NCBI GenBank assembly: GCA_049472355.1
Contig: JBLIRP010000065.1
Span: 1-22,748, forward strand
DNA from: a bacterium
GTDB lineage: Bacteria; SZUA-182; DTGQ01; JAFGSM01
Direction: 5' to 3'
Length of the DNA: 22,748 bases
Under the pieces are notes generated by a model. It worked only from the letters and a program-made list of their open reading frames with translations. It did not search any database and had not been told where the DNA came from. How positions within the stretch are numbered: position 1 is the first letter of the stretch; every line of letters begins with the position of its first letter. This document shows, in pieces, positions 2,560 through 21,443 of this stretch. The translations under genes were made by a program, and so were the position numbers.

Positions 2560-4047
2560 ATGGACTACATAAAACTTTTAAACCTCCAGTCTGAACCGTT
2601 TTCGAATTCCCCTGATCCCTCCTTCTTTTTTCTTTCGAAAACCTATCTGGATTGCCTGCAGAACCTTGAAATTTCAATCCGGTTGAGGAGGGGATTGAAT
2701 CTTGTGGTGGGGGATATCGGAACAGGAAAAACGACCCTGAGCAGGGCATTGATACAGCAGTTTCAAGCCGAGGTGGATCGCTTTCTGTTTCATCTTATCC
2801 TGGACCCCTCCTTCAAATCGGAGTATGATTTTCTGCACGCCCTCATCATGGGGTTCGGCATAACCCGTCCGGCCGTCAATTCCTCATTCGCCTACAAGGA
2901 GGCAATACGTCAGTTTCTGCTGGACGAAGGTGTCCAGAAGGGGAGGGTGATCGTCCTCATTGTCGACGAGGGGCAGAAGCTCAATGACGTGTGCCTTGAA
3001 TTGCTGAGGGACCTGCTCAACTTCGAGACCAACCAGTACAAGCTCCTTCAGTTGATCATTATGGCGCAAAAGGAGTTCCATGAGAAGATACGAGACAAAC
3101 GAAATCTCACCGACAGGATCAATACCTTTCATACCATAAGGCCGCTCGACAGAAACGAGACACAGGATATGATCCAGTTCCGCCTCCGCAAGGCAGGGTG
3201 GACGAAGAGCCGCCCCCTCTTTTCCCAGAAGGCCATCGATCGTATCTACCATTACAGCGAGGGATATCCCCGGAGGATCATTACCCTGTGCCATCATTCG
3301 CTCCTCCTGATGCTCATCCGGAAGGCGGATGTTGTGGAGCCCGACATCGTGGAGAATGCCATTTCCCAGTTGTACGAATACGAGGAAGGGGCCGGGGCGG
3401 ATGGGGTATCACTCCCCTCCAAGGGCATTGCATCACAGAAGCCGCGCAAGGGTTTCAGTCTGTCGAGGAGACTGCGAACCTTTCCCGTGCGGCGCCTCTT
3501 CAATCCCGTTCTCTCGGCATCACTCATATTTCTTCTCTTTGTAACCCTGCTCTGGGGTACCAAACACATGAATTGGATCAACAGGGAGGGCGCGATAGAG
3601 GAGCCTATTGCCTCCGTCACGCGTGAGGCCCCAATTACTCCTGCCGAACCCGATGAGGCAGGGGTGAGCGCTGATGTCCCTCTCGCCGGAACCGGGATTT
3701 CGGAACCCTCTTACACCGGGCAGGTGGCCAGGATCATGGATGAACTTAAGGAGCCTGAGGAAGATCGCCGCGAGGATGTCAGCGAGGTTATCCCCATGAT
3801 CGTCTCGGAGGGGGATACAATATTGAGGCTGGCCAGGAGGATATACAGGAGCCCCATGGACCAATCACTTCTTGAGAAGATCCGGGGCATGAATCCGCAC
3901 ATCCCGGATCTTGATCATATAGAGGTCGGCGAACGGGTCTTTTTCCCCAGATTCTCCGATTCCGGCGCCGAACTCCTTGCCCCCTCATTCTCTGCCGGAA
4001 AGGAGTTCCCCTTCGGCGCGGGGGAGGGTGATCATGAAAACCGATAA
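2560..4047 (+). CDS. ExeA/GspA (MshM-like) AAA ATPase with TM segment and C-terminal LysM-like domain
   Basis: EPFSNSPDPSFFF N-terminus, Walker A GDIGTGKTT, Walker B LIVDEGQ, SEGYPRRI; TM SLIFLLFVTLLW; LysM-like VSEGDTILRLARRIY...NPHIPDLDHIEVGERVFFP. Confidence 0.9.
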   Translation: MDYIKLLNLQSEPFSNSPDPSFFFLSKTYLDCLQNLEISIRLRRGLNLVVGDIGTGKTTLSRALIQQFQAEVDRFLFHLILDPSFKSEYDFLHALIMGFGITRPAVNSSFAYKEAIRQFLLDEGVQKGRVIVLIVDEGQKLNDVCLELLRDLLNFETNQYKLLQLIIMAQKEFHEKIRDKRNLTDRINTFHTIRPLDRNETQDMIQFRLRKAGWTKSRPLFSQKAIDRIYHYSEGYPRRIITLCHHSLLLMLIRKADVVEPDIVENAISQLYEYEEGAGADGVSLPSKGIASQKPRKGFSLSRRLRTFPVRRLFNPVLSASLIFLLFVTLLWGTKHMNWINREGAIEEPIASVTREAPITPAEPDEAGVSADVPLAGTGISEPSYTGQVARIMDELKEPEEDRREDVSEVIPMIVSEGDTILRLARRIYRSPMDQSLLEKIRGMNPHIPDLDHIEVGERVFFPRFSDSGAELLAPSFSAGKEFPFGAGEGDHENR

Positions 4048-4702
4048 GGACTTGAATGCGACAAACCAGTTGATCAAGGTCATCAGGGGAGAGGCCTACT
4101 CCATCCCTTCGGACCGGAATTCCTCCCATGAAGATGCCGGTACAACCGGGCTTACCGGCCACGCCGGTGTGGGGAGATGGGGGAGGATGGCGATTGCGAC
4201 CCTCGTTCTCCTCATCGTCTGCTTTACCTTTTTGAGTGTGTCATTTCTTGCCGGACAGATCAAAAATCTCGAGGCCGCCAGGGGCAAACTGGCCGCCATG
4301 CGGCAGCAAATCGAAGCCCCCCCGGAACCGGTTTCCCTGTGGGAACAAAGGACGGAACTTGTTGAACGGATCGACTCCTTCCGGGAGTTCCTTACAGGGC
4401 CCAGGCCTTACGTATCGAGCCTTCTCAAGGAGATCTCGCACATCCTGCCCAAGAATTGTTTTTTAAACCGTGTTCACATCTTCATTCCCTCGTATGAGCT
4501 TGCCTCCCAGGGGGCAACCCTTACCGTTGAGGCAACCCTGGTCGATGATACACCCTCCTACCGGGACGCGGATGTAACCCCGGTGATCAAGGCCATCGAG
4601 GCATCCCCGCTTTTTGGGCGGACGAGGATCGGGTACCAGGATCGCTCGATTCTTTTCAACTATCGGACCATCGATTTTCAACTCGACTTTTCTCTGGAAT
4701 GA
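4034..4702 (+). CDS. PilN/MshI-like fimbrial assembly protein
   Basis: ATG 4034 after GGAGGGTG, overlapping the previous stop; single TM, coiled coil, SSLLKEISHILPKNCFL and IEASPLF segments typical of PilN. Confidence 0.7.
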   Translation: MKTDKDLNATNQLIKVIRGEAYSIPSDRNSSHEDAGTTGLTGHAGVGRWGRMAIATLVLLIVCFTFLSVSFLAGQIKNLEAARGKLAAMRQQIEAPPEPVSLWEQRTELVERIDSFREFLTGPRPYVSSLLKEISHILPKNCFLNRVHIFIPSYELASQGATLTVEATLVDDTPSYRDADVTPVIKAIEASPLFGRTRIGYQDRSILFNYRTIDFQLDFSLE

Positions 4703-5292
4703 CACGGGCAAACGCATACAACAGATTGAAATACATAGGAATATCCATCCTCGTGTGCGTGGTGGTCATTCTGTATGCTGCATGGTGGGGGGTATGCATA
4801 TATGTTCCCTATGCAAAAAAGAGGGATGCGCTCAAGCCCGATATTGCGGCCCTTGAGGAGGATATCCGCCAGAGAACTGAACAAGTGCGGCAATACCGGA
4901 TGATACATGAGCGGCTCAGCGCATCCATGGCCCCTCTGGAGCCCTTTCGGTCAAAACTTCCCCTGGTTCCCGATCTGCCTGAATTTGTCCGCCATGTTAA
5001 GCAGAGGGGAAGAAGGCATAATCTGATCGTGGAAGGGGTGCTGACCACACCCTCCCTTTCCACCGATTATCCGACCGAGGCCCTCATCGCCCCCGTACAC
5101 CTTTCGTTCACCCTCAAGGGGGAATTTCTTTCGGTCGGGCGATTCCTGCAGTATCTGGACGAGGAGGAACGGCACTTCTGTCATGTGCGGAGCGTCACCC
5201 TGGAAAGGTCATTGGCACGGGGCTATTCCGTGCTTGCCCGGGTAAAGGCTGAGCTGTTTTGCCAAAAGGAGGAGCGTGATGGATCTTCCTAA
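4699..5292 (+). CDS. PilO/MshJ/GspM-like protein
   Basis: ATGA overlap; TM + coiled coil + KLP..PDLPEF...PVHLSFTLKGEFLSVGRFLQYL, a PilO-type signature. Confidence 0.8.
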   Translation: MTRANAYNRLKYIGISILVCVVVILYAAWWGVCIYVPYAKKRDALKPDIAALEEDIRQRTEQVRQYRMIHERLSASMAPLEPFRSKLPLVPDLPEFVRHVKQRGRRHNLIVEGVLTTPSLSTDYPTEALIAPVHLSFTLKGEFLSVGRFLQYLDEEERHFCHVRSVTLERSLARGYSVLARVKAELFCQKEERDGSS

Positions 5293-5791
5293 GAAATGGC
5301 TCATTCCCGTACTTTCCACTGTTGCTGCGGGAATCGTCGTCCTCATGCTCATCGGCCTGAGGCATCGAAGCATGCGTCGATCAGACCCTGTTTCCGGTGC
5401 CGATGAGGAGGCCGGGCTCACCACCCCTTCTCCCGGTGGGCAGAGTGCATCCGGGCAGACCGACCAGGGAATGAATTCCTCCTATGCAGCCCAGGCACGA
5501 CTCTTGAGCGCCCCCTGGGGAAGGGACCTTTTCAGCCTCGATTCCATAAAGACCAGATCTGCCGGGGCTACCGCCCCCCCCAGCGGGGGGCTTCGCACCT
5601 CGGAGGGCCGGCTTTTGGATATCAAATTGACCGGGATTGTCTTTTTTGATAATCAGTATATGGCGCTGATCAACGACAACGGCGTACGGGAAGGGGACAG
5701 CATTTTCGGTTTCAAGGTGTTGAAGATAAAGCGCGACTATATCGTGCTGCTCGACGGCTCCGGCGACTACTATACACTGGATCTCAAATAG
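5279..5791 (+). CDS. GspB/MshK/PilP-like accessory protein
   Basis: AGGAGG RBS; N-terminal TM, low-complexity linker, WGRDLF, then KLTGIVF....MALINDNGVREGDSIFGFKVLKI beta domain. Confidence 0.7.
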   Translation: MDLPKKWLIPVLSTVAAGIVVLMLIGLRHRSMRRSDPVSGADEEAGLTTPSPGGQSASGQTDQGMNSSYAAQARLLSAPWGRDLFSLDSIKTRSAGATAPPSGGLRTSEGRLLDIKLTGIVFFDNQYMALINDNGVREGDSIFGFKVLKIKRDYIVLLDGSGDYYTLDLK

Positions 5792-5808: not shown

Positions 5809-8800
5809 ATGGAAGAAGAGAGAATCTCCTGGAACTATATCATATTCACCGCGCTCATCGGGATTTTTTTGCTCCTGAACCTTTTCGGGATCTTCCGCAC
5901 CCTTTTCGGGGTGAACACCGCCATCTTTCTTACCCTCATCGGCGGGTACAAGATCTTTTACCATGCAGTGAGCGAACTGTTCGAGAAGAGGATCTCGGTG
6001 GACCTGGCAATCGGCATTGCCGCCATCGGGGCCCTGGCCATACGGCAGTATCTTGCGGCTGCAGAGGTCATCTTCATCATGCTCATCGGCGAGGCCCTGG
6101 AAATGTTCGCGGTGGACAAGACCAGATCGGCCATCAAGAACCTGGTCGCCTTGGCCCCCAAGAGGGCTCGGGTGAGAAGGGACGGGATCGAGCTGGAGCT
6201 GCCCCTGGAGGCGATCAGGGTGGGAGAAACCGTCATCTGCAAGCCCGGGGAAAGGATCCCCGTCGACGGCGTGGTGGTTCATGGCGCATCCTTTGTTGAC
6301 CAGGGACCCATCAGCGGGGAATCGATCCCGGTGGAAAAGCAGGTGGGCTCGGAGGTTTACAGCGGCACCATCAATCAGCACGGCGTTCTTGAGATCAGGA
6401 GCGAGAAGGTCGGCGAGGACACCCTTCTTGCGAGGATCATTCATCTGGTGGAGGATGCCCAGGAGAAGAAGGCCCCCTTTCAGAAGACCGCCGACCGCTA
6501 TGCCGTCTATTTCGTCCCCACCATCCTGATCCTCGCAGCCCTCACCCTCCTGTTCAGCGGCGATTGGATTCGCGCGGTTTCCGTTCTTATCATCGCCTGC
6601 CCCTGCGCGCTGGTGCTTGCCACTCCTACGGCGGTGGTGGCGGGTATCGGCCGCCTCGCCAAGGAGGGCATCCTGGTGAAGGGGGGTATGTATCTGGAGG
6701 CCGTGGGCAGGATCGACACCCTGGTGATGGACAAGACCGGCACCGTCACCCAGGGGCGGCCGAGGATCATTGATATCAAGCCCCAGGGCGGTTATGACCG
6801 GAAGGGTGTGCTTACCCTGGCTGCATCTGCGGAGAGCTGTTCCGAGCATCTCCTGGCCCGGTTGATTGTGGAAAAGGCCAAGGAAGAGGGCATAGGGATC
6901 AAAAAGGCGGATACCGCCCAGGTGATACCGGGCCGGGGGGTCGTGGTCGGCCTCGGCCGGAATAAGGTCGTGGTCGGCAACCGGAAGATGGCCGAGGAGC
7001 ATGGGATTACCTTGAGCATGGACCAAATCGAGGATCTCGAGCGGATCGACGCATCGGGCCAGACCCCCATCCTCGTTGCGGATAATCAAAAACTCGCGGG
7101 GATTGTCAGCATCGAGGACAGTGTCCGCCCTGATGCGGAAGAGGCCATAGGCTCCTTGACAGGGCTGGGTGTAACGGGTATCCACATGCTGACGGGTGAT
7201 ACCCCTCGGGTCGCCAAGGTCATCGCCGAAAGGGTGGGAATACGGGAGGTGCAGGCCGGTCTCCTTCCCGACGAGAAGGCCGAACATATACGCAGGCTTC
7301 AGTCCGAAGGACGGAAGGTGGCGATGGTCGGTGACGGGATCAACGATGCCCCCTCCCTTGCAATGGCGGACGTGGGGATCGCCATGGGGGGTATAGGCAC
7401 GGACATCGCCATTGAGGCGGCGGACATCATCCTCATGGCCGACGACCTGAAGAAGCTGCGCGAAACCGTGCTCATAGGGAAGAGAACCGTCCGGGTCATC
7501 AAACAGAACATCCTCTTTTTTGCGGTGGTCTTCAATCTGCTCGCAGTGGCCGCCGCCTCTTTCTTTACCTTCATCACCCCGGTATGGGCCGCGGTCATCC
7601 ATCAGATAAGCTCACTGCTCGTGGTGGGGAATTCCTTGCGGCTCCTTTCCAGTCATCGGATCAGGCAGGAGATGCGGGAGAATGTTGTTTCATTCCTGGG
7701 GTATCTCTCCCGGGATGTGTGGGGAAAGGGGGGAGACTGGATCGGGGAACACAGCGCCGGTCTGCTGAGATCCGCCGTTGTCCTTTGTGTCCTGATATAC
7801 GCCGTGAGCGGTTTTTTTATCATCCGGCCCAATCAACTGGGGGTTGTTCAGATCTTCGGCAAGAGACGTCCGAGGACTATTGCTCCCGGGCTTCACTATA
7901 TCCCACCGTGGCCCATAGGAAGGGTGACCAAGCTTCCCCGGAGTGTGGATCGGGTGGAGATCGGTTTCCGCAGCCGGAGTGTCCGGGAGGCACTGGGGGA
8001 TCCAAACCGGGTCTATCAGCCACTTGTTGCCTATGAGTGGGACATCCAGCACCGAACGGGCGCCTACAAGGACGTTCCCGATGAGTCCCAGACCTTTACC
8101 GGGGATGAGAACTTCATCGAGCTTGATATGGTGGTGCACTATACCATCAAGGATCCCGCGCTCTACCTTTTCAGGATTAGGGGGAGGGAGGATGCCGATT
8201 CCATCATCCGTTTCACCGCGAAATCGACCATCATCCGGATTATTGCCAAGAAGACCATCGACGATATCCTGACCACCGAGCGAAATGCCATCGAGGAGGA
8301 GGCCAAGGAGGGGCTTCAGGCGGTTCTCGATGACTACGGGGCAGGGATCGAGGTGGAGGGGATCTATCTCCAGTCGGTGCATCCCCCCATTGAGGTTGCC
8401 GATGCGTTCCGGGATGTGGTAAACGCCAATGAGGAGAAGAGCCGGTTGATCAATCTGGCGGAGGCCTATTCGCGGGAACAGTTGCCCCTGGCCCGGGGGA
8501 ACGCCTTCAACTCTCTGGAGGATGCCGGAGCGTACAGAAAGGAGCTCATTGATAAGTCCGCAGGGGACGGGAAACGATTCCTTTTTTCTGCGCAGGAATT
8601 CGGACGATATCCCTCCGTGACAAAGGAGCGGCTCTACCTCGAGACAATGGAGGCCGGCCTGAGCGGGATAAAGAAATTCGTGATGGATAAAAACAGAACC
8701 GGAGGGAGTGAACTGACCATTGTCACCCCAAGGGAATTCACGGAGTTTTTGAATGCACTCTCTTCGGGATCGAGAAACAACACCGGCGCTGCTTCACGGG

Positions 8801-8829
8801 GAGGCGGCATGGGAGGAGGGAATCAATAG
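5809..8829 (+). CDS. Heavy-metal P1B-type ATPase fused to a C-terminal HflK-like SPFH domain
   Basis: SGES actuator loop, CPC (6598-6606), DKTGT (6730-6744), MLTGD, VGDGINDAP; then in frame TM + SGFFIIRPNQLGVVQIFGK...PGLHY..PWPI...TGDENFI...SVHPPIEVADAFRDV...ERLYLETME (HflK). Confidence 0.93.
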   Translation: MEEERISWNYIIFTALIGIFLLLNLFGIFRTLFGVNTAIFLTLIGGYKIFYHAVSELFEKRISVDLAIGIAAIGALAIRQYLAAAEVIFIMLIGEALEMFAVDKTRSAIKNLVALAPKRARVRRDGIELELPLEAIRVGETVICKPGERIPVDGVVVHGASFVDQGPISGESIPVEKQVGSEVYSGTINQHGVLEIRSEKVGEDTLLARIIHLVEDAQEKKAPFQKTADRYAVYFVPTILILAALTLLFSGDWIRAVSVLIIACPCALVLATPTAVVAGIGRLAKEGILVKGGMYLEAVGRIDTLVMDKTGTVTQGRPRIIDIKPQGGYDRKGVLTLAASAESCSEHLLARLIVEKAKEEGIGIKKADTAQVIPGRGVVVGLGRNKVVVGNRKMAEEHGITLSMDQIEDLERIDASGQTPILVADNQKLAGIVSIEDSVRPDAEEAIGSLTGLGVTGIHMLTGDTPRVAKVIAERVGIREVQAGLLPDEKAEHIRRLQSEGRKVAMVGDGINDAPSLAMADVGIAMGGIGTDIAIEAADIILMADDLKKLRETVLIGKRTVRVIKQNILFFAVVFNLLAVAAASFFTFITPVWAAVIHQISSLLVVGNSLRLLSSHRIRQEMRENVVSFLGYLSRDVWGKGGDWIGEHSAGLLRSAVVLCVLIYAVSGFFIIRPNQLGVVQIFGKRRPRTIAPGLHYIPPWPIGRVTKLPRSVDRVEIGFRSRSVREALGDPNRVYQPLVAYEWDIQHRTGAYKDVPDESQTFTGDENFIELDMVVHYTIKDPALYLFRIRGREDADSIIRFTAKSTIIRIIAKKTIDDILTTERNAIEEEAKEGLQAVLDDYGAGIEVEGIYLQSVHPPIEVADAFRDVVNANEEKSRLINLAEAYSREQLPLARGNAFNSLEDAGAYRKELIDKSAGDGKRFLFSAQEFGRYPSVTKERLYLETMEAGLSGIKKFVMDKNRTGGSELTIVTPREFTEFLNALSSGSRNNTGAASRGGGMGGGNQ

Positions 8830-8834
8830 GAATA

Positions 8835-9740
8835 ATGGCGCACAAAAAGGACACAATGTTCAAGACCCTTGCTATCATCATTATCCTGATATTGGGATTG
8901 TTCTGCCTTTTTATCTGCGATGAGACGGAATTCGTCATCGTCACCCTCTTTGGCAAGCCGGTGCGAACCGTGAGCCAACCCGGCATCCATGCCAAGACGT
9001 TCCTGCATAGCACCACCCGCTTCGATAAAAGGCTCCTGATCTATGATCCCACGCCGTCGGAGTTTCTCACCATGGACAAGAAGAATGTGGTGGTGGATTG
9101 CTTTGCCTGCTGGAAGATCATCGATCCCCTTGTATTCTACCAGACTGCAGGGGATATCGAGGGGGCGGAGAGGAGGCTGTACGATATCGTCTATTCGGAG
9201 GTCTCCGCAGTGCTCGGTAAATACGATCTCTCCAGCCTGATCGTGACCGATCCCGAGCAGGGGAGGATCGATCAGCTCATGGCGACCGTTACTGAAAACT
9301 GCCGGGTAAGGGCTGAAAGGGATTTCAGTATCGCCATAAAGGACGTGCAATTGAAGCAGCTCCTTCTGCCGCAGCAGAACAAGCAGAGCGTGTTCGACCG
9401 GATGCGCGCCGAGCGGCAGCGTATTGCCAAGATGTACCGTGCGGAAGGGGAGGAGGAGGCGCTGAAGATCAGGGCCGCCACCGACCGGGAGGTGAAGGCT
9501 ATCCTTTCCGAGGCCTACCGGGAGGCCCAGATCATCAAGGGCGAGGGTGACGCCGAATCGATTCGGATCTATGGTGAGGCTTACAGCCAAAACCCGGGAT
9601 TTTATAAATTGGTCCGCACCTTGGAGGCATACCAGAAATTCCTCGACGAGAAGACCACGGTGGTGCTCTCTTCGGACTCGGAACTCTTGAAATTGATGAC
9701 GGAGGGTGAACGGGCGATCTTTCCCGGCAGCGCCCGCTGA
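8835..9740 (+). CDS. hflC: HflC-like SPFH protein
   Basis: TM + DETEFVIVTLFGKP...PGIHAK...FDKRLLIYD..EFLTMDKKN...VFDRMRAERQRIAKMYRAEGEEEA...GEGDAE..IY.EAY..NPGFY...RTLEAY. Start may be 8856. Confidence 0.9.
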   Translation: MAHKKDTMFKTLAIIIILILGLFCLFICDETEFVIVTLFGKPVRTVSQPGIHAKTFLHSTTRFDKRLLIYDPTPSEFLTMDKKNVVVDCFACWKIIDPLVFYQTAGDIEGAERRLYDIVYSEVSAVLGKYDLSSLIVTDPEQGRIDQLMATVTENCRVRAERDFSIAIKDVQLKQLLLPQQNKQSVFDRMRAERQRIAKMYRAEGEEEALKIRAATDREVKAILSEAYREAQIIKGEGDAESIRIYGEAYSQNPGFYKLVRTLEAYQKFLDEKTTVVLSSDSELLKLMTEGERAIFPGSAR

Positions 9741-9758
9741 TCACCCTGACGGAGAATA

Positions 9759-10727
9759 ATGCGCATGACGAAGACGACGCGAGGTCTTTACGGGCACCTG
9801 CTTGCCTGGGGAAAATATCTCCTGCTTTTGGCGCTCGGCCTCTATCTTCTTTCCGGGCTTTACTTTATCAGAACATTCGAGACGGGGGTCCTCCGATTTT
9901 TCGGCCGCGTGGTCAGCGATCATATCGGGCCCGGGCTCCACTATACCCTCCCGTATCCCTTCACCCGGGTGGACAGGATCAGGCTTCAGGAGAGAAAGCG
10001 CGTTGCCGTGGGATTCGAATTCTCCGATCAGGTGGTGGGCAGGAGATCAAATCCCCTCCAGGGGGAATTCATAAGCGGCGACGAGAATATCCTCAACCTC
10101 GAAATGGTGCTCCAGTATTTCATCATCAGCCCGGTGGAATACCTCCTGAGGGCTGAGAACCCCCAGGCCCTCATTCGCTCCTTTGCAAAGGACAACCTTA
10201 CCCGCGCCGTATCGCACATGCAGGTGGATGAGATCCTAAAAGGGGAGGGAAAGGTGTTCATCCAGTCAAAGGTGCTCCAGCAGACCCAGAGGGATCTGGA
10301 CCGGATCATGAACGATCGTAAGTGGGTTCAGATCACCTCGGTGAACCTGCAAATGGTTTCACCGCCGCTGGAGGTGGCCGATGCGTTCAAGGATGTGGTG
10401 ACGGCCCGTCAGGACAGGGATCGCCTCATCAATGAGGCCGAAGGGTATCGCTACGACAGCCTCCCCAAGGCGCGGGGGAGGGCGGCGGAGTTATTTCACC
10501 TGGCCGAGACATACAAACTGGAGAGGATCAACCAGGCCAAGGGTGATGCGGAGCGGTTTAGGAAAATGGCGGAAGAATTCAACAAAAAGGGAAAGGTTAC
10601 GGCAACCCGCCTCTACCTGGAGACAATGGAGCGCGTCATGGCGAGGATCCAGAAGGTCCTTGTCCAGGATGCGAAGGGCGGGGAGCCCCTGGATCTGAAT
10701 ATCATTGATATTGAGGGAATGCAGTGA
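9759..10727 (+). CDS. hflK: HflK-like SPFH protein
   Basis: TM + ETGVLRFFGR..GPGLHYTLPYP...ISGDENIL...SPPLEVADAFKDV..ARQDRDRLINEAEGY...RLYLETMERV. Confidence 0.9.
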   Translation: MRMTKTTRGLYGHLLAWGKYLLLLALGLYLLSGLYFIRTFETGVLRFFGRVVSDHIGPGLHYTLPYPFTRVDRIRLQERKRVAVGFEFSDQVVGRRSNPLQGEFISGDENILNLEMVLQYFIISPVEYLLRAENPQALIRSFAKDNLTRAVSHMQVDEILKGEGKVFIQSKVLQQTQRDLDRIMNDRKWVQITSVNLQMVSPPLEVADAFKDVVTARQDRDRLINEAEGYRYDSLPKARGRAAELFHLAETYKLERINQAKGDAERFRKMAEEFNKKGKVTATRLYLETMERVMARIQKVLVQDAKGGEPLDLNIIDIEGMQ

Positions 10728-10734
10728 AGGGTGG

Positions 10735-13050
10735 TTACTTGATGCAGACCTTGCGCACCTGCAACAGATCGGTGTCCCCCTTGAACACCTTCATGATGCC
10801 GTCCTGCTTCAGGGTGGTCATCCCCTCTTCGATGGACTTATCCCTGATCACGTCGATGCTCGCCCCGTCCACGATGAGCTGCTTGATCGTATCACTGCCG
10901 TAGAGGAGCTCGTGGATGCCCGTCCGGCCTTTGTAGCCGGTGTTCCCGCACTTCGGACATCCCTTCGGCTTGTACAGGTAAAGATCGTCGGTGTATTTGA
11001 CCCCCATCTTCTTATCGAACCATTCCGCCCCGTATTCATGGACCAACTCGTCATATTCCTCCTTGGTGGGATGATACTTCTCCTTGCAATCCGAGCAGAG
11101 CGTCTTCACCAGACGCTGGGCCAGGATCCCCAGCAGGGCGTTTGCGAAATTGAAGGCATCCATCCCCATGTCGAGCAAACGGACAATGGTTTCAGGTGCG
11201 CTGTTGGTGTGGAGGGTGCTGAACACGAGGTGACCGGTAAGGGACGCCTCGATGCCGATAGAGGCGGTCTCCTTGTCCCTCATCTCACCGACCATGATCA
11301 CATCCGGATCGGCCCTGAGGAAGGAGCGCATGCAGTTGGCAAAGGTCAGCCCGATGGTGCTGTGCACCTGGACCTGGCGAAGTCCGTACTGGGTGATTTC
11401 GACGGGGTCCTCCGCGGTCCATATCTTTCTTTCCGGACGGTTTATGTTGCCCAGTGCGGAGTGCAGGGTGGTGGTCTTTCCTGATCCGGTGGGTCCCACC
11501 ACCAGGACAAGGCCATAGGGTTTGCCGATGATGTCCATCAGATGCTTGAGGTTGTATTCGCTCAGGTTCATCTTGTTCAACGGCAGAGGCTCGCTCGCCG
11601 CCAGGATCCTGAGCACGATGTCCTCATTCCCGCCCACCGTCGGGGTGACCTCGACACGAAGCTCGATGTTTTTCTGGGAATAGTGAAACTTGATCTTGCC
11701 GCTCTGGGGGAGCCGCCGTTCAGCGATATCCAGCCTGGCCATGATTTTCAGCCTGGAGGCCAGGGCCCTTCGATAGTTTGCCGGTATCTCCAGGGCCTTT
11801 CGACACTCGCCGTCGATCCGGTAGCGGACGATGGTCGACTGCTTCCCCTGGTAGGGCTCGACGTGGATATCCGAGGCCCCCATGGTATAGGCATCGCGTA
11901 TGATCTGGTTGGCCAGCTTGATGATGGTGTTATCCGATTCGTCGATCCCCTCCTCAACCTCGTCGCTCTCCGTTTCTTCCTGGATCTCCATATCAAGCTC
12001 CGACACGAGGTCATCGAGTTTGACGGCGGGCCTGCCGTCGCTCGAGGTGACCGACTGAAGAAACTTGAGGATATCCTCGGGGAGGACGCCGACCAGGCGG
12101 ATCTTGATCGAGCCCAGGTATCGCTTTATCTCATCGATCTTGTGTACGTCATGGGGATCGTCCACCATGACCTCTACGATGCCGTCATCCGACCTTTTGA
12201 AGGGAGTCCACTGGTTTTTGACCAGATAGTTGGGGCTGAGTCCGGTGAGAAGGGATCGGTCGATCAGGATCTTGGGGTCGTAATCCATAAAGGGGATGTT
12301 GTAAAATTTCGCCAGGGAGTCCAGGATGTCCTTCTTGTCGATCTTGAACTCCCTTTTCAATATGCCGACGATGTTCTCCTTGGACTTCCTGGATTTCACG
12401 ATGATGGTGTTCAGCTCATTCTCGGTGATCAGATTCTTTTCAACGAGGTAGCCGAACTTGGTGCTGACCTTATTCTGCCGGGATGTCTGGTTGTGGAATG
12501 CGATGCCGAGGGTTTTGGCAATCTCCTTGATGGACGAGATCTCGTAGAGGCTGAATTTGCCCCCGCTCTTTTTGTTGATGAGCTGGACGACGCCCAGCAT
12601 GGTGCCCTGGAACATGATTGCGCATGCCAGCACCTGTCTGGTCCGGTATCCGCTTTGAATATCATATTTTTGATTGAAGCCGAGCTCGGGATCGATCTTT
12701 CGCAGCTCTTCCTTGTCGTATGCGTCGGTGATGTTGACATAGGTTTTCGAACAGGCGGCAAATCCGGAGATACTCTTCTTGTCCATCTTGACCCTGATCT
12801 CACCGATACCGTCACCCACCTTGTATTTGGAAAAGAGCTCGTTCTGCTTGGAATCGACGGCATAGATGGTGATCCGCTCGGCATCGAACAGCTCCAGGAT
12901 TTGTCCCTGCAGTTTGAGGAATATCTCCTCGATGTCCTTGGCGGCGTGGATGGCGTTGGTGATATTGAGGAGCCGCTCCTTGTATGCGAGCTCACTCTCT
13001 AATGCCTTGAGATCTTTATCCTTTTCCTTTGCTCCAAACAAGATGGGCAT
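10735..13050 (-). CDS. GAF-domain-containing PilB/GspE secretion/pilus assembly ATPase
   Basis: N-terminal GAF; ASDIHVEP, LDIAERRLPQSG, Walker A GPTGSGKTT, TAEDPVE, LRADPDVIMVGEMRD, TGHLVFSTLHTN; Zn knuckle CSDC/CPKC. Confidence 0.93.
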   Translation of the reverse strand: MPILFGAKEKDKDLKALESELAYKERLLNITNAIHAAKDIEEIFLKLQGQILELFDAERITIYAVDSKQNELFSKYKVGDGIGEIRVKMDKKSISGFAACSKTYVNITDAYDKEELRKIDPELGFNQKYDIQSGYRTRQVLACAIMFQGTMLGVVQLINKKSGGKFSLYEISSIKEIAKTLGIAFHNQTSRQNKVSTKFGYLVEKNLITENELNTIIVKSRKSKENIVGILKREFKIDKKDILDSLAKFYNIPFMDYDPKILIDRSLLTGLSPNYLVKNQWTPFKRSDDGIVEVMVDDPHDVHKIDEIKRYLGSIKIRLVGVLPEDILKFLQSVTSSDGRPAVKLDDLVSELDMEIQEETESDEVEEGIDESDNTIIKLANQIIRDAYTMGASDIHVEPYQGKQSTIVRYRIDGECRKALEIPANYRRALASRLKIMARLDIAERRLPQSGKIKFHYSQKNIELRVEVTPTVGGNEDIVLRILAASEPLPLNKMNLSEYNLKHLMDIIGKPYGLVLVVGPTGSGKTTTLHSALGNINRPERKIWTAEDPVEITQYGLRQVQVHSTIGLTFANCMRSFLRADPDVIMVGEMRDKETASIGIEASLTGHLVFSTLHTNSAPETIVRLLDMGMDAFNFANALLGILAQRLVKTLCSDCKEKYHPTKEEYDELVHEYGAEWFDKKMGVKYTDDLYLYKPKGCPKCGNTGYKGRTGIHELLYGSDTIKQLIVDGASIDVIRDKSIEEGMTTLKQDGIMKVFKGDTDLLQVRKVCIK

Positions 13051-19958: not shown

Positions 19959-20597
19959 GTGGCCTTTAATCCCATCATCGTCATTCAGTTCGCGGTGCTC
20001 CTTTTTGCCATCACCATTCACGAGGCCAGCCATGCCTGGATTGCCAATCTGTGCGGGGACCCGACCGCTGCATACATGGGAAGGGTGACCCTGAATCCGG
20101 TCCCCCACATCGACCCCATCGGCACCATCCTTATCCCCCTGTTCCTGATGATCTTCAGCCCGGGGTTTGGATTGATCGGGTGGGGAAAACCATGTCCGGT
20201 GAATCCCAATAATTTTCGAAACCTGCGCCGCGATGAAATCCTGGTGTCCATCGCCGGGGTGACGTCGAATCTCGTGGCAGCCCTGGCCAGCCTTTTCCTC
20301 CTGAAACTCTTTCTCATCGTGGGGATCACATCGCAAGGACTCTCCATCCTTCTTCGTATCATGTTCCAGCTCAACTGTGTGCTCCTGCTTTTCAACCTCA
20401 TCCCCATTCCCCCCCTCGACGGATCCCATGTCATGAAACAGTTCCTGCCGGCCGCAACGGTGGAAAGGCTCGCCTTTTTGGATCGGTGGGGATTCCTTAT
20501 CCTCCTGCTTTTGATCAATACGCCCCTGTTTGATTATTTTTTTTCGGTGTTCATGTATCCGTTCAATCGTCTATTCTTTTTGGTAATGGGCATTTAA
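19959..20597 (+). CDS. Site-2 protease family (M50) zinc metalloprotease
   Basis: HEASH, GDPT, LNPVPHIDP, FNLIPIPPLDG; GTG start after a G-rich RBS. Confidence 0.92.
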   Translation: MAFNPIIVIQFAVLLFAITIHEASHAWIANLCGDPTAAYMGRVTLNPVPHIDPIGTILIPLFLMIFSPGFGLIGWGKPCPVNPNNFRNLRRDEILVSIAGVTSNLVAALASLFLLKLFLIVGITSQGLSILLRIMFQLNCVLLLFNLIPIPPLDGSHVMKQFLPAATVERLAFLDRWGFLILLLLINTPLFDYFFSVFMYPFNRLFFLVMGI

Positions 20598-20599
20598 GG

Positions 20600-20626
20600 A
20601 CTCCCCCCTCGAAGAAGAGGGGGAGT
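20600..20626. terminator. Hairpin between convergent genes, possible terminator
   Basis: ACTCCCCCCTC-GAAGAA-GAGGGGGAGT (one bulge); no clear U tract. Confidence 0.45.
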
Positions 20627-20780
20627 ATCATTCCACGGAGATGCAACTCGACGACTTATATCCCTCTTGTATGTTCCTTCTCTCGGTTTGTGGGATATGG
20701 CATCGCGGAGAGAATGGCTGTGTGACTGGATTGTGGGAGCGCGGTCATTCCCACTGGTGGAGGCCCCTTGGCTGCCCTAT

Positions 20781-21443
20781 CTAATGCCAGTAGCGGCGAT
20801 CGTCCCGGCCGCGATCGCGCAGTTTCCGCACCCTTCTCATGATATTGGGGTAGTCGAGGTAGAGATACCCGATGACCATCCCGCCGAGGTGCGCCATGTG
20901 GGCGATGCCGTCGCCCCTTCGGGAGACGGTGGAATAGAATTCAATGAGACCGAAGATGAGGGCGAAGTATTTTGCCTTGATGGGAAACAGGAATTGCAGG
21001 TAGATGATCCGGTCCGGATAGGTAAGGGCAAAGGCGAGGAGTATCCCGTAGACGGCCCCGGAGACCCCGATCGTGGGGATGGGGGAGTTCGGTGTGAATA
21101 AGGCGCTGGAGAGCCCCGCCCCGATCCCCGTGATGAAGAAATACTTCATGAAGTACCTGGTTCCCCACCGGTATTCGAGGTCGCTTCCGAACATCCACAG
21201 GGCAAAGAGGTTGAAGAGGATGTGCATGAGCCCGCCGTGAAGGAACATGTACGTCACCGGCTGCCAGAAGAAGAACCGATGCCAGACGAAATAGGGTCGA
21301 AGCCCGAAGTAGACGACCAGGAAGTTCCCGGTGATGAGCTGCAGGAAAAAGACCACCCCCATGATGATCATCAATTTTTTTATACCCGGGCTCAGGGGGG
21401 GGCCGAAGGAGGTATAGCGCGGTCCGTATTCATGATAAGGCAT
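20781..21443 (-). CDS. Rhomboid-family intramembrane serine protease
   Basis: WQPVTYMFLHGG..HILFN, catalytic GVSG, AHMAHLGG. Confidence 0.93.
   Translation of the reverse strand: MPYHEYGPRYTSFGPPLSPGIKKLMIIMGVVFFLQLITGNFLVVYFGLRPYFVWHRFFFWQPVTYMFLHGGLMHILFNLFALWMFGSDLEYRWGTRYFMKYFFITGIGAGLSSALFTPNSPIPTIGVSGAVYGILLAFALTYPDRIIYLQFLFPIKAKYFALIFGLIEFYSTVSRRGDGIAHMAHLGGMVIGYLYLDYPNIMRRVRKLRDRGRDDRRYWH

Follow-up and report, generated by a model that had tools for sequence, protein, structure and literature searches.

A gene module joining a P1B metal ATPase to HflK: a probable SPFH cage with interchangeable transporter cargo

We analyzed a 22,748-nucleotide stretch of bacterial DNA, hereafter the window (contig JBLIRP010000065.1 of assembly GCA_049472355.1, forward strand), and found three adjoining genes that encode a P1B-type heavy-metal ATPase fused to an HflK-like protein, an HflC and a second, free HflK. 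We refer to the fused HflK part as K1, to the module HflC as C and to the free second HflK as K2. The module is real, intact and widespread, and is apparently an undescribed variant of the SPFH cage with covalent, interchangeable metal-transporter cargo. Taking the analyses together, we consider it likely that these genes build a dedicated SPFH cage to which a metal exporter is covalently tethered. The full mechanism, in which the tethered exporter would also hand its metal to periplasmic clients, is a more tentative proposal that we place a little short of even. In other bacteria the cage is found with other metal transporters, which suggests that export of metal, instead of a protease, can be what an HflK/HflC-type cage is built around. 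A full-text literature search, in which subscription journals were thinly covered, found no publication on these fusions; the accessible part of PMC13086221 mentions no fusion or transporter, and databases label the proteins simply HflK or Cu+-ATPase.

A preliminary description of this DNA had claimed that one uninterrupted open reading frame (ORF) joins the ATPase to HflK and that hflC-like and hflK-like genes follow it. Both claims held. The frame is free of stops, and Pfam places E1-E2_ATPase at residues 115-285, Hydrolase at 302-521 and Band_7 at 670-886. The NCBIfam models for heavy-metal P-type ATPases (TIGR01525, residues 65-612) and for HflK (TIGR01933, residues 669-964, 204 bits against a cut-off of 159) both match above their cut-offs, as do those for the two downstream genes, which lie behind gaps of 5 bp (fusion to hflC) and 18 bp (hflC to K2). 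The features, all on the + strand, are as follows; alignment A1 comprises 73 aligned fusions, and TM5 and TM6 stand for transmembrane helices 5 and 6.

5809..8829, +: P1B-ATPase::HflK fusion gene (K1), 1006 amino acids, a single stop-free ORF (Pfam and NCBIfam)
5809..7647, +: P1B ATPase part, residues 1-613, membrane helices plus A, P and N domains (TIGR01525 match at 65-612, AlphaFold2 model, fold match)
6598..6606, +: CPC metal-site motif (C264, C266), 73/73 in alignment A1
6730..6744, +: DKTGT phosphorylation motif (D308), invariant in A1
7531..7614, +: TM5-TM6 specificity residues F575-N576 and H598-Q-x-S-S602, from alignment to 3j08 (CopA: Y-N, M-x-x-S-S)
7654..7749, +: linker helix, residues 616-647, amphipathic (hydrophobic moment 1.1-1.4) and probably cytoplasmic (DSSP on the model)
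7753..7824, +: HflK-type membrane helix, about residues 649-672 (model; aligns with E. coli HflK 83-128)
7816..8466, +: SPFH (Band_7) domain, residues 670-886 (Pfam)
8032..8061, +: Y-E-W-x-x-Q-H-R-x-G motif (W744, H748) in an insert of the fused SPFH domain (alignments; low model confidence)
8380..8382, +: H858, ahead of the coiled coil, typical of transporter-fused HflK (54/54 K1 rows, 0/52 K2 rows)
8389..8661, +: coiled-coil helices of the HflK part, residues 861-951 (AlphaFold2 model)
8835..9740, +: module hflC (C), 301 amino acids (TIGR01932, 211 bits against a cut-off of 134)
9759..10727, +: free second hflK (K2), 322 amino acids, without the Trp/His residues of K1 (TIGR01933, 195 bits against a cut-off of 159)

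The fusion is not an artifact of assembly or of read-through past a stop. When residues 560-1006 served as the query, 117 proteins were found, namely the query itself, 84 P1B fusions, 3 cation diffusion facilitator (CDF) fusions and 29 ArsP fusions. Seventy-six of the 84 P1B fusions carry all three domains and 8 are partial, so that with the query the three-domain architecture was found in 77/117 matches. Five genome records match nearly the entire fusion protein at 56-93% identity. When 40 relatives were examined, the fused domain was present in 11/12 genomes of the same order and in 0/28 of the others; the single negative genome of the order is only 63% complete. Ten of the 11 frames run to 1003-1052 codons, and the other is a 749-codon frame near a contig start. 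A contig from a DNA run of a related strain spans window positions 7323-7844; it has a single pair of 1-base indels, which compensate each other. An RNA-library contig, also of a related strain, spans 7615-7778 without a gap. The stop or misassembly near 7640-7780 that would have undone the preliminary description was therefore not seen, and its expectation that similar clusters exist in other genomes proved correct. RNA-library contigs overlap parts of all three genes, an overlap that cannot show transcription, and the DNA runs that best match the module include marine sediment metagenomes.

The order of the three genes is equally constant. We scanned for the insert motif with a pattern that was built from this family, and so selects the P1B clade, and examined 80 of the at least 120 stretches found. 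The motif lay inside an HflK-like frame in 75 and not in the other 5. These 75 frames comprised 56 with a full in-frame P1B, 8 with a P1B cut by the contig end, 8 that were uninformative and 3 that were split or frameshifted. In these metagenome loci, wherever there was room on the contig, hflC followed the fused gene (70/70 loci), and a second hflK was present in 58/59, the exception (L093) being a broken contig. No FtsH match was found in these loci. K1, C and K2 thus form a fixed unit.

The transporter, by contrast with the shell, varies. All 117 proteins found with the K1 part carry a metal transporter as fusion partner. With K2 as the query, the 67 longer matches were likewise all fused (50 to P1B, 16 to CDF and 1 to ArsP), and among the best 150 K1 representatives the same was true of all 73 long ones (P1B 40, CDF 31, ArsP 2). 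Both H-x3-D motifs were kept in 11/11 aligned CDF partners, and 13/16 CDF fusions in the K2-query set keep the helix 2 and helix 5 residues of that family. Two CDF::HflK proteins of about 800 residues (P0284, P0296) have an additional N-terminal membrane domain and lack H-x3-D motifs. The case for a metal cage is therefore stronger than the preliminary description knew, because the cargo is exchanged among three unrelated metal-transporter folds.

We found a further arrangement in Planctomycetota, where 49 of 121 genomes had an HflK match. The 34 loci examined comprised fusions to P1B (4), CDF (3) and ArsP (8), 14 loci of a fourth type, 2 that were incomplete and 3 that were unrelated. In the fourth type (L214, L217, L218, L220-L223, L226-L228, L231-L233 and L235), K1 carries a membrane domain without a Pfam match and is followed by C, K2 and a separate P1B gene. 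This domain is CDF-derived (hhalign 98.3%, E 1.5e-14; Foldseek matches to ZnT3 at E 8e-4 and YiiP at E 3e-3). It is degenerate, having lost the helix 2 Asp and the helix 5 His/Asp that the 11 aligned true CDF partners keep, and has 632 homologs. The idea that it is a displaced piece of a P1B pump was dropped, as it matched neither P1B membrane part. Complex prediction for this domain with the free P1B of its operon scored 0.01 against a mark of 0.32, which gives no verdict and is used neither way.

The trees suggest how the cargo has moved. In a P1B pump tree of 49 rows, CtpC not among them, the free pumps of the fourth type form their own clade (support 100) apart from the fused-pump clade (98), which suggests two separate entries of P1B pumps into the module. 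A cargo swap is indicated by L202 and L203, two CDF modules whose K1, C and K2 each group with P1B-type counterparts in their trees.

The source genome holds three HflK/C sets: the window module, a CDF module and a plain hflK-hflC pair on contig C142. The CDF module (C57:8645-12238, L241) has the same gene order as the window and encodes a CDF::HflK of 579 amino acids with both H-x3-D motifs intact, in which no C-terminal CDF domain was seen, followed by hflC and hflK. The genome's ftsH lies on contig C4 beside folP. A separate canonical hflKC pair and ftsH, which the preliminary description had proposed looking for, are thus both present. Its remark that the window lacks FtsH was correct for the ORFs of at least 80 amino acids, which were read by eye with 11 of them Pfam-scanned, but the point is uninformative, since the E. 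coli hflKC genes likewise do not lie beside ftsH, and we dropped it as evidence. The presence of ftsH on other contigs in 11/11 genomes of the order that carry the fusion is no more informative. In an IQ-TREE phylogeny of 87 HflK rows, with groups subsampled and two long rows left out, 17 plain HflKs, including those of E. coli and C142, formed one clade without any K1 or K2 inside (SH-like approximate likelihood ratio test, SH-aLRT, 99). By orthology with E. coli HflK, then, K1 and K2 fall outside the canonical HflKs. A single clade for all module HflKs had a FastTree support of 84 and was not recovered by IQ-TREE; we do not claim it. The source genome also encodes a stomatin/QmcA-like SPFH protein joined, as judged by eye, to an apparent radical-SAM domain (CxxxCxxC) in one 684-residue frame (C83:6407-8461, L001), which adjoins what read as further radical-SAM genes.

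We modeled the fusion as a monomer with AlphaFold2 from 73 sequences (mean predicted local distance difference test, pLDDT, 81; predicted template modeling score 0.59). The last pump helix (591-613) is followed by a helix at 616-647, a membrane helix at 649-666 and then the SPFH domain and coiled coil. The C terminus of a P1B pump is cytoplasmic. Since the chain then crosses the membrane once more, the SPFH part is predicted to lie on the metal-exit side, and the model fits the topology put forward in the preliminary description.

K1 has residues of its own in this region. W744 and H748 occur together in 45/54 K1 rows: 25/26 of those fused to P1B, many of which were picked by the motif, 8/8 of those fused to CDF and 12/12 of those with the degenerate CDF. 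In a set that was not picked by the motif, W744 was present in 73/73 and H748 in 66/73 sequences. No W-x3-H pair was found in the insert stretch of 68 free HflKs. H858 was present in 70/73 long representatives among the best 150; that it might be exclusive to fused subunits, as a first count of 0/68 had suggested, was given up when more genomes gave 2/23 among canonical HflKs. One 327-residue HflK with a short N terminus (P0321) has both the W-x3-H insert and H858 and is possibly an unfused K1. The insert sits right after the strand that corresponds to residues 140-146 of E. coli HflK, which we take to be strand beta4; if that is right, the insert would face the lumen near the membrane. The accessible part of a preprint describes FtsH as contacting HflK strand beta4 inside the chamber. 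The "Arg191" quoted in PMC12048511 is an Ala in E. coli K-12.

The pump is a P1B heavy-metal ATPase, with CPx, DKTGT, TGE-type and GDGxND motifs, A, P and N domains and a fold match to CopA (7r0g) at E 3e-47. No N-terminal CxxC was found in the 73 aligned fusions, and the window pump lacks the corresponding domain. We take YN in TM5 and MxxSS in TM6 to be the Cu+ determinants of P1B-1 pumps such as CopA. The window pump instead has F575-N576 and H598-Q-x-S-S: across the alignment N576, H598, Q599 and S602 are conserved in 73/73, the CopA Tyr occurs at position 575 in 1/73, and the TM6 Met is replaced by His in 73/73. P1B-2 pumps (ZntA/CadA) are marked by a Lys in TM5 and Asp-Gly in TM6; these markers are absent from the fused rows and present in the CadA-like rows L017, L020, L022 and L027. 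P1B-6 pumps such as FezB are defined by D[Y/F]SCA, HNxxT and six helices (10.1101/2020.01.10.902569, accessible part), against ACPCA and HQISS in the window. The closest described signature appears to be the CPC and TM6 His of CtpC, given as CPC plus N-X18-H-N-X-(S/T) and linked to zinc export in the accessible part of PMC13460109; the window pump reads N-X21-H-Q-I-S-S. With CPC, F/V-N and HQxSS, the metal-site signature is an unclassified one.

As the metal carried, we give zinc about an even chance. It would be the ion common to the cargo families, that is, to the CDF His-Asp sites, the SO_0444 Cu/Zn family and the CtpC-like pump. Mn, Fe, Co or Ni is possible though doubtful. Cu+ transport is less probable again, yet stays possible because the fused-pump clade adjoins CopA-like rows.

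Genes around the module were surveyed as raw counts, with no genome-wide background rate, and the Pfam scan covered 109 of 201 flanking ORFs. One neighbor encodes a 165-residue membrane-anchored protein with weak DUF4878/NTF2-like similarity; it lies 3' of K2 in 38/44 loci with room and directly after K2 in 6/6 genomes of one sister family. It is absent at the window locus, and distant homologs lie on C127 (6727-7320) and C27 of the source genome. A secreted protein of about 870 residues with a DUF3604/CehA-McbA (PHP-like) metallohydrolase domain adjoins 22/85 loci, including 20/46 P1B loci with at least 1 kb upstream, and also two Planctomycetota loci. Of 14 rows, at least 90% retain its His/Asp columns, and a PDB search gave no match. 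Two of 8 ArsP modules have a ZIP importer gene directly upstream. M28 peptidase genes were seen downstream of 2 CDF modules, and 6 degenerate-CDF modules have ABC-2 exporter genes next to them. No metal-responsive regulator family was found among the 109 scanned flanking ORFs and no shared operator or palindrome in 49 upstream regions; promoter and terminator scans gave counts near chance, and Rfam gave no match.

Other neighbors were noted in passing. In the window, an ExeA-like AAA ATPase and three small membrane genes (2560-5791) lead into the fusion gene across a 17-bp gap; an ExeA-like gene is upstream of the module elsewhere in loci L012-L016 only. A PilB/GspE-like gene (10735-13050) converges on K2, and adjoining genes at 19959-21443, about 9 kb off, seem by their motifs to encode a site-2 (M50) zinc protease and a rhomboid protease. 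A tandem family of proline-rich proteins of about 190 residues in the source genome (C116:57289-59818, C27:5589-7419, C57:12732-13322) has signal-peptide-like starts and a shared P-P-Y-N-x-L-W-P-L-W-S-P motif. Paralogs of ribosomal protein S14 with a single cysteine are zinc-shortage genes, and one such gene (L222:2470-3012, minus strand) is divergent from a degenerate-CDF module; this is one case.

We propose a periplasm-facing ring built like the E. coli cage, in which HflC and HflK-type subunits take turns. The HflK positions would be divided between free K2 and a small number of K1 subunits with their pumps, K2 diluting K1 and preventing the crowding of bulky pumps, and the linker helix of about 32 residues would let the pump sit within the enclosed membrane patch. 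The pump would export a transition metal, most likely Zn2+, from the cytoplasm, and W744, H748 and H858 of K1 may receive it beneath the dome. The purpose would be a housekeeping supply of metal to exported metalloproteins, rather than emergency detoxification. We favor delivery because no metal-responsive regulator was found among the scanned flanking ORFs, the pump has no N-terminal metal-binding domain, the candidate ligands are specific to K1 and metalloenzymes are among the neighbors. A paper on CtpC reportedly deals, to go by its title, with the metallation of secreted proteins, a lead in the same direction. If delivery is true, the module is a route for loading exported enzymes with metal. 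That there is a widespread and so far undescribed class of periplasm-facing bacterial "metal-loading domes", with a socket that takes any of three transporter folds (or, in their place, an inactive CDF together with a free P1B) and a Trp/His site that catches the ion and passes it to exported metalloenzymes beneath the dome, is a possibility we regard as doubtful.

A number of results weigh against delivery, or against parts of it. In its nautilus form the E. coli cage has an opening on one side (PMC12048511), so free ions would not be retained. Model confidence in the insert is low (residues 723-751, pLDDT <50), the W-x3-H pair is missing from 8/8 aligned ArsP fusions, and H858 also occurs in the 2/23 canonical HflKs mentioned above and in 7/65 short matches without the insert motif. 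The PHP-like gene and the module share a contig in only 1/11 fusion genomes of the order, and the copy in the source genome (C27:16-3138) has no visible H-x-H motif. The position of the fused pumps beside CopA-like Cu+ pumps (support 92) counts against zinc. In one 98% complete genome, G006, FtsH is present and yet all four HflK matches lie within modules. The column of E. coli HflK R141 is Arg or Lys in most module HflKs, which leaves FtsH binding possible.

The cage might merely cluster or stabilize an exporter for detoxification, in the manner of PacL and CtpC and with no hand-over to clients. Every cargo family is annotated as an exporter, PacL1 maintains CtpC abundance in membrane foci (PMC9374683, accessible part), and the TM6 His motif of the pump resembles that of CtpC (PMC13460109, likewise). 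Against this stand the negative regulator and operator searches, the pump without an N-terminal metal-binding domain and the ZIP importer genes upstream of two ArsP modules, and scaffolding alone would leave it unexplained why the Trp/His residues are limited to the fused subunit. We regard simple efflux as unlikely. Lower still we place the idea that the paralogous HflK/C continues to hold FtsH and that the tether brings the pump for turnover or couples export to proteolysis. All three SPFH domains score above the HflK/HflC family cut-offs. What keeps the idea alive is that the R141 column of module HflKs is mostly Arg or Lys and that in 19/29 module-bearing Planctomycetota genomes, as in G006, no separate canonical-type pair was found. 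The source genome, however, has its own canonical pair, module HflKs fall outside the canonical clade, window K1 has Asp at the R141 column with a long insert directly after it, and degradation of the pump would destroy a cage subunit.

In a third reading the cage would keep the transporter restrained until a signal releases or activates it, a kind of control that has been proposed for stomatin and its cargo. AQP1 and UT-B are both held within stomatin, in a study whose authors discuss sealing or sequestration (PMC12407830); HflK/C opens and closes (PMC12048511), and the His residues of K1 could sense periplasmic metal. The covalent tether would prevent release, and no regulatory partner conserved across architectures was found among the 109 flanking ORFs scanned, and this reading seems to us improbable. 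We think it very unlikely that the SPFH dome forms a sealed membrane pocket or vesicle, loaded with metal by the pump, as in a ferrosome-like organelle. In ferrosomes the filling is done by a P1B ATPase that has a TM6 His motif (10.1101/2020.01.10.902569), and the same shell recruits several transporter types here. The pump lacks the P1B-6 motifs, no fez-like family was among the Pfam matches of the scanned flanking ORFs, few ligands are conserved in the shell, and a sealed store is disfavored because of the open nautilus form of the E. coli cage (PMC12048511). Of the roles offered in the preliminary description, metal delivery thus fits best, and a sealed compartment or pump quality control fits less well. 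Its central claim, a cage repurposed around a metal pump, is supported in part, by the conserved fusion, the fixed unit, the separate canonical hflKC and ftsH, the position of the module HflKs outside the canonical clade and the topology.

Among pumps, the best sequence and fold match is to CopA-type P1B-1 Cu+ ATPases (PDB 7R0G, 3J08), the sister group, which share CPC, the TM5 Asn and the TM6 Ser; the module pump differs in the TM5 Tyr (replaced in 72/73), the TM6 His in place of Met, the missing N-terminal CxxC domain and the C-terminal HflK fusion. FezB of ferrosomes (P1B-6) is likewise a P1B pump with a TM6 His and is linked to a compartment-forming gene cluster, but its defining motifs are not those of the module pump, and the accessible part of the ferrosome source reports no SPFH proteins. 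Mycobacterial PacL-CtpC (PMC9374683, PMC13460109, accessible parts) also pairs a CPC-type P1B ATPase having a TM6 His motif with a co-encoded membrane scaffold. PacL, however, is not an SPFH protein, its foci are flotillin-independent, there is no fusion, and its metal motif is cytoplasmic.

Among cages, E. coli FtsH-HflK/C (PDB 7VHP/7VHQ, 7WI3, 9CZ1/9CZ2) shares HflK/HflC-family subunits with a membrane helix, SPFH domain and coiled coil, as well as coupled genes, and the similarity of the fused domain to E. coli HflK reaches E 3.6e-36. The module has three subunit types instead of two, with one HflK fused to a cargo that is a metal transporter; it represents a separate paralogous lineage, and the Trp/His residues of the insert are absent from E. 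coli HflK. Human stomatin with aquaporin-1 or UT-B (PDB 9ZD2; PMC12407830, accessible part) is the precedent for a transport protein under an SPFH dome. Stomatin is homo-oligomeric and holds passive channels non-covalently, whereas the module would hold an ATP-driven or secondary metal exporter covalently and, unlike stomatin, would place its dome on the exit side.

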